The notes under the pieces were generated by a model. The model was not told where the DNA came from and ran no database searches. It saw only the letters and a program-made list of their open reading frames with translations. A program made the translations under genes and the position numbers. Of a stretch of 64,000 nt of DNA, positions 13,068 to 59,685 are shown piece after piece (position 1 is the stretch's first letter; each line of letters opens with the position of its first letter). The DNA is from Syntrophales bacterium (GTDB lineage: Bacteria > Desulfobacterota > Syntrophia > Syntrophales > UBA2210), in contig JALNXD010000002.1 of assembly GCA_023230565.1 (NCBI GenBank), forward strand, positions 16,366 to 80,365, read 5' to 3'.

Positions 13068-14420
13068 ATGAAACGTTTGTTAGTAGCTCTGCTCGCGCTG
13101 GGCCTCATATGCGCATTTGCAATGCCCGCAGGCGCGACTGATATCAAGTTTAACGGCCTTTATTATGTCGAGGGATGGTACAGCGCCAATCCCCGGCTGG
13201 AAGAAGATAACTCGTCAAGCGCCTGGTACAACCAGCGCATGAGAATCAATACGGTATTTCAGGTGAGCACGGGCCTCAGCCTTACCACCCGCTTCGATGT
13301 CATGGAAGGTGCGTGGAAGGGCGCGAATTCCGTCTATGACAAAAACGGCAATGTCTATGCCGATAGCTTTGCAAACAATGCACTGGCCGAATCCGATATC
13401 GATTTCGATTTTCTCTATCTGAGCTTCAACACCAAATGCGGCGCAATTCATGTAGGTCAGATGTCCGACAGTATTTTCGGAACCCCCTTCGGCAACGGCG
13501 AGATCTCCCTTCCCAAGATCGGCTGGAACCTGCCTTTCGGAGGCGGAAAGTTCCTTAACGTATTCCAGCTCAAAAAATATGACGATTCGGAATACATCAA
13601 TGCAAAGAATAATGTAAGGTACGAGTCGGACGCTCAGATGGCAGGCTACATGGACATCATCTTCTACTTCGACAAGACCACCGAAGCGGCGTTCCTGTAT
13701 CAGTACACCCCCAGCTCAGCCGCATCCGGCATTGCGGCGGCCCTTGGACCAAACAAGAGCTATTCGCATACAATTCTTCCTTACATCAAGAAGACCCTCG
13801 GCAGCTTCTATATCGAAGCCGAGTTGAAGTGGACGAAGGGCGAAGTGGAATACGAAGACGAGGCGATCGCATTGGGCTTTACCGATACCGATACATCTGG
13901 CTTGAGCTTCTTCCTTCATGGCAAGCAGACGATCGGCGCCGGCTATCTGGGCGCAATGTTCGCCTATTCCCAGGGTAACGATATCACGACCCCCGATGAA
14001 AACGAAGGCGGAGCGACCGGCGGATATGAGTGGGATCCCTGTCTGATACTCTGGAACCACGACTATGCCGACTGGGGCACCAACGCGGGACTGGGAACAG
14101 CCGCGGGACTCAAAACGGGCCGCGAGATGGGTAATGCACTCTTCTATCAGGTCTATGGCGGCTTCAAACCTATGAAGGCTCTGGAACTCTTTACGTCCAT
14201 ATCCTATGCCACTGCCGACGAGGATGTGGTACTCAATCAGGTTGATGATGACTACGGCGTCGAGTTTGACGTAAAGGCCACCTACAAGCTGTTCGATAAC
14301 CTCGAATACATGGTAGGCTTCGGCTATTTCTGGGCAGGAGACTACTACAAAGGTGCGGATCCCACTCTGGAGATCGACAACGACTACCTGCTCATCCACA
14401 AGCTGACCTTGAAGTTCTAA
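13068..14420 (+). CDS. outer-membrane beta-barrel porin-like protein
   Basis: Signal peptide MKRLLVALLALGLICAFAMPAGA. The composition is aromatic- and Gly-rich with alternating residues. The C-terminus ...HKLTLKF ends in Phe. Strong RBS (AGGAGG) and strong terminator. No family assignment is possible by eye. Confidence 0.6.
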   Translation: MKRLLVALLALGLICAFAMPAGATDIKFNGLYYVEGWYSANPRLEEDNSSSAWYNQRMRINTVFQVSTGLSLTTRFDVMEGAWKGANSVYDKNGNVYADSFANNALAESDIDFDFLYLSFNTKCGAIHVGQMSDSIFGTPFGNGEISLPKIGWNLPFGGGKFLNVFQLKKYDDSEYINAKNNVRYESDAQMAGYMDIIFYFDKTTEAAFLYQYTPSSAASGIAAALGPNKSYSHTILPYIKKTLGSFYIEAELKWTKGEVEYEDEAIALGFTDTDTSGLSFFLHGKQTIGAGYLGAMFAYSQGNDITTPDENEGGATGGYEWDPCLILWNHDYADWGTNAGLGTAAGLKTGREMGNALFYQVYGGFKPMKALELFTSISYATADEDVVLNQVDDDYGVEFDVKATYKLFDNLEYMVGFGYFWAGDYYKGADPTLEIDNDYLLIHKLTLKF

Positions 14421-14540: not shown

Positions 14541-16199
14541 TTGATAGTTCATCACAGGAGTTACCAGGCCATACCCCGCATATACGGAAACACGACCGGA
14601 CTTAAGCCGAGCGAGATCAGGGAAATCGAGCAGCTCTACAGGAGACGCATACCTCCCGAGCGCATAATTACGCAAGAATATGCCAGGCGCCTCACGGAAC
14701 TTTCTTTCCGGACGGGCCGCCAGCTGGGCGTTTTGATCAACCGGCGCGGTGAAACCGATTATGTGATTGCAGGTGACCACCGCCAGATCGTCATACCTGG
14801 ACTCACCGGGTTCCGGGCTGCATCAACGCGCCTGAAAGGATTGCGGCTTATCCACACGCACTTGAAAGAAGAGAGGCTCAGCCGGGACGATCTGACGGAT
14901 CTCGCGCTGCTGCGCCTCGATCTCGTAGCGGCGCTTACTCTGGATGCGCAAGGTCTGCCGGATACTGTGCATTCAGCCCATCTGATTCCTGAGAACCCGC
15001 AAGGCGAATACTGGCAGATTCTCGAGCCGCAGCGAATATCGGAGACTGATACGAATTTCATATCTTTTATCCAGGCTCTTGAAGAAGAGTTCGCCCGCCG
15101 GCAGAAGGTTAGAAAAGTCGAATCGCGCGACCGGGCCATTCTTGTCCGGGTTGAAACAAACTCCTTCTTCGACAGCGATTCCTCCATAGAAGAACTGAAA
15201 GAACTTGCCCGGTCTTCGGACGTCGAGGTCTTCGATACCGTGATACAACATCGGAATGCTGCGGACCCGAAATTTCTCATGGGAAGAGGGAAACTCGCAG
15301 AGGTTGTTATCAAAGCGCTCCAGATGGGGGCAAATCTTCTGATATTCGATCAGGAGCTCACGTACGCCCAGGTTCGCTGCTCCATTACCGATTTTACCGA
15401 AATGAAGGTAATAGACCGGACTCAGCTCATTCTGGACATCTTCGCACAGAGAGCTCTTTCGAAGGGCGGCAAGATTCAGGTTGAACTGGCACAGCTTAAA
15501 TATCTTCTTCCCCGCCTGATTACGAAAAATACCGCCCTTTCAAGATTGACGGGCGGCATAGGGGGAAGGGGGCCCGGCGAAACCAAGCTCGAGATCAACC
15601 GCCGAAGAGTGCGCGACCGGATCAATCGTCTTGAAAAAGAACTCGGCCGGATTCGGAAAGGAAGAACAGAACGCCGCTCAAGGAGGAAAAAAGAGGGCCT
15701 TCCGGTTATTTCGATTATCGGGTATACAAATGCCGGTAAATCGACCCTCCTGAATGCACTGACGGAAAGCGCGGTGCTCGCTGAAAACAGGCTATTCGCG
15801 ACGCTGGACCCGAAGAGCGCCCGTCTGAGGTTCCCGCGGGACCGCTCAGTAATAATAACTGATACGGTGGGTTTTATTCGTGATTTGCCCAGGGAACTAG
15901 TGGCGGCCTTCAGAGCGACCCTGGAAGAACTTAACGAGGCCGATCTCCTTCTGCAAGTTATTGATGTTGCCAATCCCGCTTTCGAGGACCATATACGGGC
16001 AGTTGAGATAATTCTGGAGGAACTCTCACTCGCAACAAAGCCCCGCATCAAGATCTTTAATAAGGAAGATCTTTTCCCCGACAGGGAAGTTCTCTCGAAT
16101 TTGTGTGTGAGATATAATGCCCTCGCGCTTTCTGCGCACAACCCTGCAACCTTTACGCCTCTTCTTGATTCGATTGAGCGCATTCTTTTCTCATCATAA
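14541..16199 (+). CDS. hflX: GTPase HflX
   Basis: GYTNAGKSTLLNAL (G1), DTVGF (G3), NKED (G4), and an HflX-type N-terminal domain with a coiled linker. The track start is a TTG and the true start is uncertain. Confidence 0.88.
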   Translation: MIVHHRSYQAIPRIYGNTTGLKPSEIREIEQLYRRRIPPERIITQEYARRLTELSFRTGRQLGVLINRRGETDYVIAGDHRQIVIPGLTGFRAASTRLKGLRLIHTHLKEERLSRDDLTDLALLRLDLVAALTLDAQGLPDTVHSAHLIPENPQGEYWQILEPQRISETDTNFISFIQALEEEFARRQKVRKVESRDRAILVRVETNSFFDSDSSIEELKELARSSDVEVFDTVIQHRNAADPKFLMGRGKLAEVVIKALQMGANLLIFDQELTYAQVRCSITDFTEMKVIDRTQLILDIFAQRALSKGGKIQVELAQLKYLLPRLITKNTALSRLTGGIGGRGPGETKLEINRRRVRDRINRLEKELGRIRKGRTERRSRRKKEGLPVISIIGYTNAGKSTLLNALTESAVLAENRLFATLDPKSARLRFPRDRSVIITDTVGFIRDLPRELVAAFRATLEELNEADLLLQVIDVANPAFEDHIRAVEIILEELSLATKPRIKIFNKEDLFPDREVLSNLCVRYNALALSAHNPATFTPLLDSIERILFSS

Positions 16200-16262
16200 T
16201 AAAGCTCAATAAAAAATGATTTGACTTTTACCTGCCTTTTTCATAAAGCAAAGTCATAATTT

Positions 16263-16450
16263 AAAAGGCCTCAATAACGACATACCCCGAAATGAATGTA
16301 AAAAAGAAACATCGGTCACTTCTCGCGCTGACTCACTTGCGCCCCGCTCTTCCCGGGGCGACATACCGGGCCTTGTCGTCTTGAGAATAGATTCCCTGGG
16401 AAAGAGCCATGATAAGGCCACGGACATAATCCGCGGCCTTTAATTTTTTT
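16263..16450 (+). promoter_or_regulatory. candidate transcription-attenuation leader (riboswitch-like) of the oxidoreductase operon
   Basis: A terminator hairpin at 16414-16440 (AAGGCCaCGG / CCGcGGCCTT) plus TAATTTTTTT ends 13 nt before the ATG. An upstream CCGGGCCTT (16366-16374) can pair with the same 5' arm as an alternative helix. AAGGCC at 16265-16270 can in turn sequester it. A GC hairpin lies at 16340-16360. Confidence 0.4.
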
Positions 16451-16463
16451 AAAGGAGCAGCAT

Positions 16464-17042
16464 ATGTACGAAATAATCTGGCACGGCCGCGGCGGGCAGG
16501 GAGTCGTCCTTGCATCGGAAGTCCTTGCAGAAGCGGCATACCTCCAGGGATATAAGGGAGTTACGTCTGCACCAACCTTCGGTCCGGAAAGAAGAGGAGC
16601 GCCCCTTGCGGCATCAACAAGAATATCGCATGAACCGATACGGACTTTTTCGCAGATCGAGCATGCAGATATAGCGGTCGTACTCGATGATTCCCTTTTT
16701 AAAGTGGTCGATATATGGGGAAGGCTCAAAGAAGGAGGAATCATGGTCGTAAATTCCTCCGCACCTCCCGCGGAAAGCTCCATTGTGAAAAAAGTGATGA
16801 TAATATGGATCGATGCTGCAGCAGTTGCCCGCGAGCACCGTCTGACAGCGGGAGGCACACCGGTTGTAAATACTCCTCTGTTAGGCGCTCTCGTAAAAGG
16901 CTGGAACTATATCGCTCTTGAAAATATAGAGCAGGGTCTTGCAATCAAAATGGCTGCATCAGGTGCATATAAAAATTTTCAGGCGGTAAAGTCGGCTTTT
17001 TCAAAAGCAGTAATCAGAGAGTATCGGGGTACGCACGCATAA
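16464..17042 (+). CDS. 2-oxoacid:ferredoxin oxidoreductase, gamma subunit
   Basis: 192 aa. MYEIIWHGRGGQGVVLASEVLAEAA is the typical POR/VOR gamma N-terminus. It is first in a gamma-delta-alpha-beta operon. Confidence 0.88.
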   Translation: MYEIIWHGRGGQGVVLASEVLAEAAYLQGYKGVTSAPTFGPERRGAPLAASTRISHEPIRTFSQIEHADIAVVLDDSLFKVVDIWGRLKEGGIMVVNSSAPPAESSIVKKVMIIWIDAAAVAREHRLTAGGTPVVNTPLLGALVKGWNYIALENIEQGLAIKMAASGAYKNFQAVKSAFSKAVIREYRGTHA

Positions 17043-17062
17043 ATGCAAATTAAAAACCGAGG

Positions 17063-17362
17063 ATGAATATGATAAAACAAGATGAAAATATATCCGGTAT
17101 CTGCACGCCTGCTATAGGAGAAGCGGGCAAGACAGGCGATTGGAGCGATGTCAAGCCGGCCATCGATCATTCCAAGTGCACACCGGCCGTAAAAGGAAAG
17201 GCAGCCTGCTTTCTCTGCTGGCTCTACTGCCCTGAGGGAGTTGTTCACATGACAATTCCCGTTCAAATCGATCTGGATTACTGCAAAGGGTGCGGAATAT
17301 GCGCCGAAGAATGCCCCCCTAATGCAATCACCATGGTCCGAAAGGAAGATATGAATGAGTGA
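17063..17362 (+). CDS. 2-oxoacid:ferredoxin oxidoreductase, delta (2x[4Fe-4S] ferredoxin) subunit
   Basis: 99 aa with CFLCWLYCPEG and CKGCGICAEECP cluster motifs. Confidence 0.88.
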   Translation: MNMIKQDENISGICTPAIGEAGKTGDWSDVKPAIDHSKCTPAVKGKAACFLCWLYCPEGVVHMTIPVQIDLDYCKGCGICAEECPPNAITMVRKEDMNE

Positions 17363-18563
17363 AATTCGTATAATAACGGGAAATGAAGCAGCAGCGCTTG
17401 CCGTTACCCTGTGTGAACCGAAGGTGGTTGCCGCATATCCGATCACTCCTCAGACAAAAATATCGGAACTCCTCTCGATGTATGTGGAAACCGGAACCCT
17501 GAAAGCTGAATATGTCCGTGTAGAAAGCGAGCATTCTGCCCTGACTGTCCTGATTTCAGCCTCTACGGTAGGTGCCAGAGTGTTCACAGCAACAAGTTCC
17601 AACGGCCTTCTTTATATGCACGAACAGCTTCATTGGGCCGCCGGATCGAGGCTGCCTATCGTCATGTGCTGTGTAAACCGGGGCGTAGGCGCCCCATGGT
17701 CTATTTTCAATGATCAGCAGGATTCGATGTCCCAGCGGGATACAGGGTGGATCCAGCTTTACTGCAGAGATAATCAGGAAATCATTGATACAGTAATTCA
17801 GGCCTACCGGATTGCCGAGCAGGTCTACATACCGACGATGGTCTGTTATGACGGGTTTGTCCTTTCACACACCATGATGCCCGTGGAAATTCCGGAAGCG
17901 GCACAGGTAAAAAATTTTCTACCCCCCTACCGCCCTCATACATTCCTTGATCCGGAGCGGCCGCGCACAATTAATCCGGTATTCTTCCCCTGGCGGCGGG
18001 AAAACGCCGAAGGCGTGCTCTGCGACGGTTACATGGAGATGCGCTACAAACTCCAGCGCGATTTTGATACTTCACTGGAAGTGATAGAAGACGTCAACGT
18101 ACAATACACAGATCTATTCGGGCGCAATTATGGCGGTCTCATCTGGGAATACCAAACCGGGGACGCAGACATTTTTGTCACCGGCATGGGGTCAATCGCC
18201 CAGGAAGCGACACTTGCCGTTGATGCACTGAGGGAAGAGGGGATCAAAATCGGCGTTGTCGGTATCCGCTCCTTCAGGCCATTTCCCAAAGAAAAATTAA
18301 TTCATGCTTTCAGCAGGGCCCGTATCATTATCGTGTTTCAAAAAGCGATAAGTTACGGAAATGAAGGAGGCCTTTCTACGGAAGTGAAAGCGGCGCTATA
18401 CGGCTCCGGAATTGATGCGCCGGTACATGATTATATAGCCGGCCTGGGGGGGCGCGACGTAAAAACGCGGGAACTCATCGCAGCAATACGGGACACCCTT
18501 GAGCGTTCCGGCGGCGGTGACTGCAAAAATAAAACAACCTGGCTCAACTGCCACAGGGGATAA
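17355..18563 (+). CDS. 2-oxoacid:ferredoxin oxidoreductase, alpha subunit
   Basis: 402 aa. GNEAAALA...AAYPITPQT N-terminus typical of POR/VOR alpha. It overlaps the delta subunit by 8 nt. Confidence 0.9.
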   Translation: MSEIRIITGNEAAALAVTLCEPKVVAAYPITPQTKISELLSMYVETGTLKAEYVRVESEHSALTVLISASTVGARVFTATSSNGLLYMHEQLHWAAGSRLPIVMCCVNRGVGAPWSIFNDQQDSMSQRDTGWIQLYCRDNQEIIDTVIQAYRIAEQVYIPTMVCYDGFVLSHTMMPVEIPEAAQVKNFLPPYRPHTFLDPERPRTINPVFFPWRRENAEGVLCDGYMEMRYKLQRDFDTSLEVIEDVNVQYTDLFGRNYGGLIWEYQTGDADIFVTGMGSIAQEATLAVDALREEGIKIGVVGIRSFRPFPKEKLIHAFSRARIIIVFQKAISYGNEGGLSTEVKAALYGSGIDAPVHDYIAGLGGRDVKTRELIAAIRDTLERSGGGDCKNKTTWLNCHRG

Positions 18564-18567
18564 CGGG

Positions 18568-19467
18568 ATGCATGAAAACCTCTTTAAAATAAACGAAAAA
18601 GAATATATTCTTCCGGGAAGCAGGGCCTGTCAGGGCTGCGGTCTTTCCATCGCTTACCGCTATATTTTGAAAGCACTCCGCGAAAATACGATCGTGGCAA
18701 TCCCGCCAAGCTGTCTGTGCGTTCTTCACGGCCTTTATCCCAATACATCCGTTACAGTACCGGCTCTGAATATCACCTTTGCGGGAAATGCAGCTTCAGC
18801 CTCTGGAATTGTAGCAGCTCTCACAGCTTTGAACAGACCTGACATAACCGTGCTCGCCCTTTCCGGGGACGGGGGCACCTATGATATAGGCATTCAGTCA
18901 TTGAGCGGGGCAGCCGAGCGGAATACCGATTTCATTTTTGCCTGCTACGACAATGAAGCATACATGAATACGGGCACACAGCGCTCGGGAGCCACGCCTA
19001 TGGGCGCTGTAACAACCACTACACCTGTTTTGACAAAGAAGGACCATAAAAAGGACTTCATCAGAATTATGGAAGCACATAATATACCCTATATCGCTAC
19101 GGTATCCCCGGCATATCCGATCGATCTTTACGAGAAATTCGTCAAAGCCAAACGCATCAAAGGAACCCGGTATATTCAGATCGATACGCCCTGCCCCCCT
19201 GGATGGGGCTATCCTGCCAAAGACACAGTAAAAATTGGCAAACTCGCTGTTGAAACAGGAATTTTTCCTCTTCTGGAAATAGAAGACGGAAAGCTTCGGT
19301 TAACAGGCAGAAGCAACACATTGTCAGTAAAGGGCAAGCGTATGCCTATCATTCATTACGTTGAGCGTCAGATGAGATTCAGAAAAATGAGCATCGAACA
19401 GCTCAATCAGCTGCAGAGCTGGGTCGACAAACGGTGGAATGATTTCACAAACAGGGCTGACAACTGA
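18568..19467 (+). CDS. 2-oxoacid:ferredoxin oxidoreductase, beta (TPP-binding) subunit
   Basis: CQGCG near the N-terminus and the GDGGTYDIG TPP motif. I place the start at the ATG at 18568, 5 nt after the alpha stop, rather than at the overlapping track start 18499. Confidence 0.88.
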   Translation: MHENLFKINEKEYILPGSRACQGCGLSIAYRYILKALRENTIVAIPPSCLCVLHGLYPNTSVTVPALNITFAGNAASASGIVAALTALNRPDITVLALSGDGGTYDIGIQSLSGAAERNTDFIFACYDNEAYMNTGTQRSGATPMGAVTTTTPVLTKKDHKKDFIRIMEAHNIPYIATVSPAYPIDLYEKFVKAKRIKGTRYIQIDTPCPPGWGYPAKDTVKIGKLAVETGIFPLLEIEDGKLRLTGRSNTLSVKGKRMPIIHYVERQMRFRKMSIEQLNQLQSWVDKRWNDFTNRADN

Positions 19468-59610: not shown

Positions 59611-59685
59611 TGGTAGGCGGTACTGGATTTGAACCAGTGACTTCTACCGTGTGAAGGTAGCACTCTCCCGCTGAGTTAACCGCCC
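59611..59685 (-). tRNA. tRNA-Val (anticodon CAC), CCA encoded
   Basis: Manual cloverleaf: acceptor GGGCGGU/ACCGCCU, D arm ACUC-AGCGGGA-GAGU, anticodon arm CUACC-UUCACAC-GGUAG, variable AAGUC, T arm ACUGG-UUCAAAU-CCAGU, discriminator A, CCA. 75 nt in total. Confidence 0.93.

Follow-up and report, generated by a model that had tools for sequence, protein, structure and literature searches.

Leader-peptide attenuation is a textbook means of controlling amino-acid biosynthesis operons in enterobacteria and a few other groups. We describe here what is probably a ribosome-mediated attenuator of this kind in a Syntrophales metagenome-assembled genome (MAG), within a 64-kb stretch of DNA (the window, to whose positions all coordinates refer), where an intergenic gap of 264 nt (16200-16463) separates hflX from porGDAB, an operon encoding a four-subunit 2-oxoacid:ferredoxin oxidoreductase (OFOR). 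The general theory of trp-type attenuation is set out in PMC1183508; the Leu-rich attenuator peptides of ilv-leu operons, for instance in Staphylococcus aureus (PMC5794164), are related examples, and attenuators in the Actinobacteria are the subject of a comparative analysis (PMC1262725) and, for Corynebacterium glutamicum, of a three-hairpin model (PMC11857589).

The gap resembles leuL, the leu leader of the Enterobacteria (RF00512, Leu_leader), in having a short upstream open reading frame (ORF) with a run of leucine codons, a terminator just before the first structural gene, and an antiterminator that competes for the 5' arm of that terminator; in both, the position of a ribosome is expected to choose the fold. 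It differs from leuL in showing no sequence or covariance-model similarity to it, in its host (Syntrophales), in its target, which is an OFOR and not leuABCD or ilv, and in its anti-antiterminator, one arm of which is the translation start region of the leader and not a segment beside the regulatory codons. With the ilvBNC and leuA attenuators of Actinobacteria it shares a leader peptide outside the Gammaproteobacteria, prediction by comparative genomics, codons for a branched-chain amino acid, and alternative hairpins, whereas the phylum, the sequence, and the class of enzyme regulated are different. Neither the window nor 10 related loci gave a covariance-model match to Leu_leader, Trp_leader, His_leader, Thr_leader, the leu/phe leader, or the T-box. 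A gathering-threshold Rfam scan found no leader or riboswitch family in those 10 loci and only one tRNA in the whole window, and searches of Rfam 15 and of full-text literature returned no leader-peptide attenuation for the Syntrophales or for any OFOR. The mechanism is a known one; the family, the host group, and the target enzyme were not found described in Rfam 15 or in the literature searched.

The element consists of four segments on the plus strand that form three helices (1:2, 2:3, and 3:4). The 3:4 helix is an intrinsic terminator, in which AAGGCCaCGG (16414-16423) pairs with CCGcGGCCTT (16431-16440) with one A.C mismatch and an extra A16424:T16430 pair. Directly after the stem comes TAATTTTTTT (16441-16450), and 13 nt further the porG ATG (16464); region 4 (16430-16450) thus comprises the terminator 3' arm (16430-16440) and a U-rich tract, UUUAAUUUUUUU (16439-16450). 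The hairpin (-17.5 kcal/mol, well beyond its shuffles) is found in both the minimum free energy (MFE) and the centroid folds, and the motif GGCCRYGG-N-CCRYGGCC occurs once in the 64 kb, against an expectation of 0. The 2:3 helix is the antiterminator, which joins 16366-16379 to 16409-16423 by 14 bp with one bulge (-22.9 kcal/mol, equalled by 1 of 200 shuffles). Its 5' arm lies inside region 2 (16362-16385), and its 3' arm, in region 3 (16409-16424), overlaps the terminator 5' arm (16414-16424). The 1:2 helix, or P1, is the anti-antiterminator, identified by duplex energy and in the MFE fold: region 1 (16270-16294) pairs with region 2 through CUCAA, ACGACA, CCCG, and the AUG of the leader ORF (16292-16294, opposite CAU at 16362-16364), making 18 bp in four segments at -21.9 kcal/mol, a value that none of 200 shuffles equals (-10.3 +/- 3.0 kcal/mol). 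Antiterminator and P1 share 16366-16379, and terminator and antiterminator share 16414-16423. The full-length MFE structure holds P1 and the terminator, and a transcript that ends before region 4 refolds to the antiterminator. All folds of the window leader also contain a 7-bp GC hairpin (16340-16360), formed by CGCCCCG (16340-16346) and CGGGGCG (16354-16360).

Much of this structure had been recognized in a first-pass annotation of the same DNA. Its terminator and U tract were correctly placed, as was the GC stem at 16340-16360, and its three-way logic of sequestering helix, antiterminator, and terminator is supported in relatives. The antiterminator strand that it had named, CCGGGCCTT (16366-16374), is real and conserved, but the helix extends well past the 9 bp proposed. 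The element AAGGCC is present at 16265-16270, but the 6-bp P1 that it was supposed to form with GGCCTT (16369-16374) is not supported: neither the MFE nor the centroid fold contains that pairing, which would cross the stronger pairing of 16270-16294 with 16362-16385, and the corresponding 5' sequence of two relatives (L002 and L128) is the self-complementary AAGGCGCCTT. Alternative-structure prediction thus returned the terminator and antiterminator folds together with a different outer helix.

Overlooked in that annotation was a small ORF of 30 codons and a TGA stop codon (MNVKKKHRSLLALTHLRPALPGATYRALSS; 16292-16384, plus strand), which has the same frame in relatives relative to a conserved block, GCCTCGCTCTT. 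Five of its leucine codons, L10, L11, L13, L16, and L20 (CTT CTC. CTG.. TTG... CTT; 16319-16351), form a cluster of candidate regulatory codons. They lie upstream of the antiterminator arm at 16366-16379, and the stop codon falls at 16382-16384. Region 2 comprises this stop codon and the 7 sense codons before it, and the GC hairpin lies within the ORF.

Relatives were gathered in two ways. A search with PorG yielded 21 loci from other species, 19 of which have a common upstream layout, in the order promoter, small ORF, hairpin, region 2, region 3, terminator, and porG. The ORF in this layout carries the block GCCTCGCTCTT and the internal hairpin, and beyond it lie a conserved segment (mostly GCCCGTCGTTTTTAGGA), a variable loop, TCCTAAAGGCCATGGG, and the terminator 3' arm with its U tract. 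Metagenome contigs were scanned with a pattern taken from the RNA element only (GTTTTTAGGA-N10-40-TCCTAA-N1-3-GGCCRYGG), which found 104 stretches; a PorG homologue lies immediately downstream in all 98 whose sequence continues on that side for about 90 nt or more, and the element is thus specific to the porG operon. Across more than 120 genomes and metagenome contigs of Syntrophales, terminator and antiterminator are conserved, with covariation, before porGDAB orthologues. The distance from terminator and U tract to the porG ATG is 13-60 nt in most loci, the window included, and 150-400 nt in a minority. With the terminator less than 60 nt from the porG ATG in most loci, transcription of the operon must read through it, and the relatives bear out the first-pass annotation on this point.

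The inserts of 150-400 nt between terminator and porG, seen in L037, L042, L044, L061, L023, and others, have repeat-like segments in common (..GCAGTGAAGCAATCT..ATTGCCGC..CTCCTCGCAATGAC..), which suggests that small mobile or repeat elements have been placed into the leader. The arrangement is not found everywhere: in two Smithella loci (L021 and L022, PorG 41% identical) a por-type operon directly follows hflX after a short intergenic region with no leader ORF or terminator, and the attenuator is thus not universal for the hflX-por synteny.

A profile hidden Markov model built from 77 non-redundant main-family leaders (alignment A2, which also served for the pairing counts) has a single match in the window, at 16293-16449 (E = 1e-4), and the window leader is a divergent homologue. 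It belongs to a clade with L002, L127, L128, and L130, in which the sequence of region 2 differs and its role is unchanged. Pairing of the terminator on A2 is 96.3%, and 5 pairs (21 cells) show compensatory change, a level that no shuffle reaches. The main-family antiterminator is 91.1% paired on A2, against 40-62% in slid controls, a figure to be read with the caveat that the A2 search pattern fixed much of regions 2 and 3, where A2 does not allow covariation to be assessed. In the clade of the window, whose 6 leaders were collected via protein alone, the antiterminator is 92.9% paired, against 22-45% in slid controls, and 2 pairs are compensatory, changed on both sides (e.g., U:A to C:G).

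The main-family anti-antiterminator, TTCCTGAAAATGAC:GTCGTTTTTAGGAA, is 76% paired (39-53% in slid controls), averages -15.8 kcal/mol against -7.3 kcal/mol for shuffled sequence, and in 69 of 77 leaders closes the MFE structure of the segment bounded by regions 1 and 2. The exact P1 register of the window is only 62% conserved in its own clade, with the core ACGAC:GUCGU kept. When transcripts are cut before the terminator 3' arm, nearly all loci fold into a long helix of region 2 with region 3, the latter made up of the spacer and the entire terminator 5' arm. The hairpin inside the main-family ORF (hairpin 1), to which 16340-16360 in the window is positionally equivalent, is 87.8% paired, with 76 compensatory cells and a covariation score of 0.438, against 0.20 when shuffled. 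RNAalifold, run on the 77-sequence alignment, returned only the terminator; the alternative helices were specified by hand and then counted. In the main family, purine-rich codons 5-8 (AAGAAGAG), which encode a conserved 'RR', could pair with the pyrimidine-rich Leu block (CTCTTCTT; A2 columns 71-85 and 131-142, respectively). We do not claim this P2 helix, which at -13.3 kcal/mol is barely better than composition-matched shuffles (-10.6 kcal/mol).

The ORF is as regular a feature of these leaders as the helices. It is present in frame with the GCCTCGCTCTT block in 20 of 20 protein-anchored loci, and an ORF of 28-42 codons with a start codon is found in 76 of the 77 non-redundant metagenome leaders. 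The distance from ATG to block takes eight values (52, 55, 58, 61, 64, 67, 70, and 73 nt) that fall into one class modulo 3 in 60 of 61 leaders, and the frame of the ORF is open in 60 of 61, its two alternatives in only 1 and 31 of them, a pattern that speaks for translation of the ORF. From the block to region 2, where the length is 37, 39, 40, or 43 nt, frame is not respected; values that would allow read-through are never taken, and the stop codon of relatives is invariably placed 4-17 nt past the beginning of a T5 run in region 2. The same nucleotides, read in two frames, give different C-terminal peptides (ending ..PSPVVFRK or ..KPIARRF before the stop codon). This dependence of the C-terminus on frame indicates that the 3' part of the ORF is constrained as RNA and not as protein.

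At the codon level, conservation is limited to the Leu block, and the N-terminal 18 codons are almost free of constraint. The core of the block in relatives reads L-L-x-L-A-L-L-L; six of these eight positions are Leu in 70-99% of leaders, through changes among CTC, CTT, CTG, TTG, and TTA, and entropy has its minimum at codon position 2 (0.33, compared with 0.77 at position 1 and 0.76 at position 3). Leucine makes up 24% of the leader peptides. The otherwise unrelated peptides of divergent clades (that of the window, MTDREPRGTLSMLSLLAVLSLLCLALPGRHSRASSS in L128, MTMMTVNELLLQGNLALTGPT in L131, and those of L003 and L009) share only Leu clusters and a stop codon at region 2.

These features could belong to an independent small gene with its own promoter and terminator, encoding a hydrophobic micro-protein, with expression of porGDAB left to constitutive leaky read-through or to an unrecognized promoter, and no sensing involved. 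The conserved ORF, with its charged N-terminus and hydrophobic core, and the strong terminator that follows it would suit such a gene, and the few loci with 150-400 nt between terminator and porG offer space for a promoter. We nevertheless consider it unlikely. The peptide is poorly conserved save for its Leu codons, and its C-terminus changes completely from one frame to the other over conserved RNA; the hydrophobic stretch spans no more than about 8-14 residues and is missing from the L131 clade; and eight representative leader peptides have no match in Pfam or NCBIfam. The gap between U tract and porG ATG is only 13-40 nt in most loci, including the window, the element occurs only before the porG operon (98 of 98), and such a gene would not explain why a conserved antiterminator and a conserved anti-antiterminator overlap the ends of the ORF.

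The first-pass annotation had favored a different explanation, an OFF riboswitch or protein-dependent switch, in which a ligand or protein would stabilize 1:2 and the fold that it encloses, sequestering the antiterminator arm and causing termination, with any ORF incidental. The layout of P1, antiterminator, and terminator is real, and the logic of competing helices, with an outer helix that sequesters the antiterminator strand, is that of transcriptional OFF riboswitches; ribosome-free folds do place 1:2 around a multi-helix domain with a covarying hairpin, and thiamine pyrophosphate, coenzyme A thioesters, and 2-oxoacids, as cofactors or substrates of OFORs, would be plausible ligands. The enclosed RNA, however, does not look like an aptamer. 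About 95 nt long in the window, it is a conserved ORF, and its 60-100 nt in the family have next to no sequence conservation beyond the Leu block and no conserved core, and vary widely between clades in sequence and length (21 to 42 codons). Its length changes are strictly multiples of three, its frame is open, its stop codon always lies on the antiterminator strand, and its Leu codons are kept through synonymous changes. An Rfam scan, one of the checks suggested with the first-pass annotation, which itself could match the leader to no riboswitch class, returned nothing relevant in this region even at permissive thresholds (E up to 10); the comparative alignment upstream of orthologous operons, also suggested there, is that which revealed the conserved, covarying terminator and antiterminator. 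A riboswitch or protein-dependent sensor is thus a decidedly unlikely reading of this leader.

A leader ORF that has a run of one type of codon and stops on the antiterminator strand, combined with the alternatives 1:2, 2:3, and 3:4, has the defining anatomy of ribosome-mediated attenuation. The conserved ORF, the Leu cluster, the intrinsic terminator, the mutually exclusive helices, and the placement of the ORF relative to the antiterminator strand are all found here, and on this comparative evidence porGDAB is probably controlled by a leader-peptide attenuator. As in trpL, there are three mutually exclusive helices, a stop codon that would let a terminating ribosome block region 2, and an untranslated default that is terminator-competent. 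In a leader without a ribosome, 1:2 would form first and then 3:4, and transcription would end 13 nt before porG. Smooth translation to the stop codon would place a ribosome over region 2, allowing 3:4 to form and again leading to termination. Ribosomes stalled at the Leu codons (16319-16351) would melt the internal hairpin, while others, queued or initiating, would hold region 1. A ribosome at L10-L20, given a footprint of the usual size, would not reach region 2 (from 16362), which, left free, would pair with region 3 and allow the operon to be transcribed. The hairpin within the ORF is possibly an RNA polymerase pause hairpin. The leader differs from trpL in its regulatory codons, which are Leu and not Trp, in the overlap of region 1 with the start codon, some 60 nt before the stall site, and in having one more covarying hairpin, inside the ORF and flanked by the stall codons and region 2. 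The most likely signal, to which we would give about even chances, is the supply of charged tRNA-Leu, with low leucine turning the operon on.

The same geometry would serve a nascent-peptide arrest sensor of the TnaC, SpeFL, or SecM type, in which a small molecule or a secretion defect, and not tRNA-Leu charging, stalls the ribosome. The basic N-terminus followed by a hydrophobic segment is reminiscent of a signal sequence, and one sub-family has a PPP motif. Arrest peptides depend on conserved C-terminal residues, however, and here those residues vary with frame and clade; PPP is limited to one sub-clade, conservation is confined to the Leu codons, and the target, porGDAB, has no link to secretion, all of which makes arrest a very improbable mode of stalling. 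The hairpin as a plain hflX terminator or transcriptional insulator with no regulatory alternative structure, a reading to which the end of hflX at 16199 on the same strand lends some color, is rejected as barely credible on grounds of position and of synteny in relatives, since the hairpin lies 215 nt past the hflX stop codon and downstream of a conserved promoter, the main family keeps leader and terminator even with an upstream neighbor on the opposite strand, and the Smithella loci with hflX directly before a por-type operon have no such element.

Several observations weigh against ribosome-mediated attenuation by leucine, or against its operation in the window copy, in addition to the limit on A2 mentioned above. 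In trp, region 1 is beneath the stalled ribosome; here it is found at the start codon, some 60 nt 5' of the Leu codons, and antitermination upon stalling would therefore need ribosome queuing or steric exclusion. The nucleotide conservation of the Leu block could in part be structural, through pairing with codons 5-8. The operon is not one of canonical leucine biosynthesis, and its substrate could not be assigned; the physiological logic is thus conjectural. In the window itself, the ATG at 16292 has no Shine-Dalgarno (SD) sequence, only an A-rich context; there are 6 Leu codons among 30 (5 of them within codons 10-20), and one core Leu codon is replaced by CCC. Where the relatives have their start codon, the window has ATA (16274): ATGATGACG, at the leader start codons of L002 and L128, aligns with ATAACGACA in the window (16274-16294), in frame with the ORF, whose ATG stands 6 codons downstream, and the former start region has been retained as a pairing partner of region 2. 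The nearest relative (L127:62-271, PorG 93% identical) has an A-run 4 nt shorter than that of the window (16292-16330), a frameshift that stops its leader ORF after 11 codons. This difference may be an error in a 1.1-kb contig, or may reflect decay of the leader ORF in the lineage. The case for the family is stronger than that for full function of the window copy.

Transcription of the leader would start from a putative sigma-70-type promoter at 16221-16249 (plus strand), with TTGACT at 16221-16226, a 17-nt spacer, and TAAAGC at 16244-16249. The form TTGACW-N17-TAnnnn is found in the identical position in 20 of 20 protein-anchored loci. From its placement, transcription is predicted to begin at about 16256-16258, giving a leader of about 195 nt. 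A consensus scan for promoters and terminators was blind to both elements, because the -10 hexamer is weak and the terminator stem has an internal mismatch. At the main-family locus L135, a lysine-rich ORF of 59 amino acids (MDKKEKSVLDAMKKEGNPMRPGDIAKKVDMDKDEVSKIIDKLKKERKVSSPKRCFYAPV; L135:8480-8659) lies just 5' of the leader promoter and has no Pfam hit on record.

The gene upstream of the gap, hflX (14541-16199, assigned with Pfam), lies on the same strand as the operon. The porGDAB operon (16464-19467, plus strand) has its subunits in the order gamma, delta, alpha, beta: porG (16464-17042), porD (17063-17362), porA (17355-18563), and porB, which ends at 19467. Pfam identifies all four subunits, confirming the first-pass assignment of the genes to a 2-oxoacid:ferredoxin oxidoreductase, and NCBIfam places them at the subfamily level. 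An SD sequence for porG, AAGGAG (16452-16457), and its start codon (16464-16466) can be read from the sequence (16452-16466, plus strand). Gene order around the operon is kept (hflX, then, in the main family, an SDR gene, the leader, porGDAB, waaA, and rpe) and gives no metabolic hint. Pfam, searched at E up to 0.001, has no match for an ORF of 450 amino acids (13068-14420, plus strand) that lies upstream of hflX; the same gene is called in the identical Logan contig L001, likewise without Pfam hits. The tRNA gene at 59614-59685 (minus strand) is the sole Rfam family at gathering score in the window.

The subunits match only pyruvate/2-ketoisovalerate subfamily models, and no NCBIfam equivalog cut-off is reached; the best models are archaeal PorA for the alpha subunit and VOR beta for the beta subunit, both below their cut-offs. 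The nearest solved structure to the alpha subunit is that of a four-subunit PFOR (PDB 9bt4). Comparison with NCBIfam and PDB could not decide between POR and VOR.

A pyruvate synthase and a branched-chain 2-oxoacid synthase would each feed leucine synthesis. Induction at low leucine would fit either, the first as an anabolic enzyme that takes leucine as a signal of sufficiency and the second as a source for leucine synthesis. As a tentative proposal, and one we regard as rather doubtful in its entirety, the oxidoreductase may be a leucine-responsive anabolic enzyme of syntrophs (a pyruvate synthase with a level governed by leucine sufficiency, or a branched-chain 2-oxoacid synthase, for 2-oxoisocaproate, making leucine through reductive carboxylation) whose leader, of unusual design, uses its own start-codon region as the anti-antiterminator; translation initiation, ribosome queuing, and termination would then be coupled in one switch.

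That a convincing riboswitch-like architecture of helices may turn out to be a translated attenuator is relevant to the automated discovery of RNA motifs. If confirmed, the element would constitute a widespread family of cis-regulatory RNAs, with more than 120 instances from digester, sediment, and wetland metagenomes, and a natural leucine-sensing switch from strict anaerobes. It would also provide a regulatory clue to the role of the OFOR in syntrophic degraders of fatty acids and aromatic compounds, organisms that are hard to grow or to study genetically.

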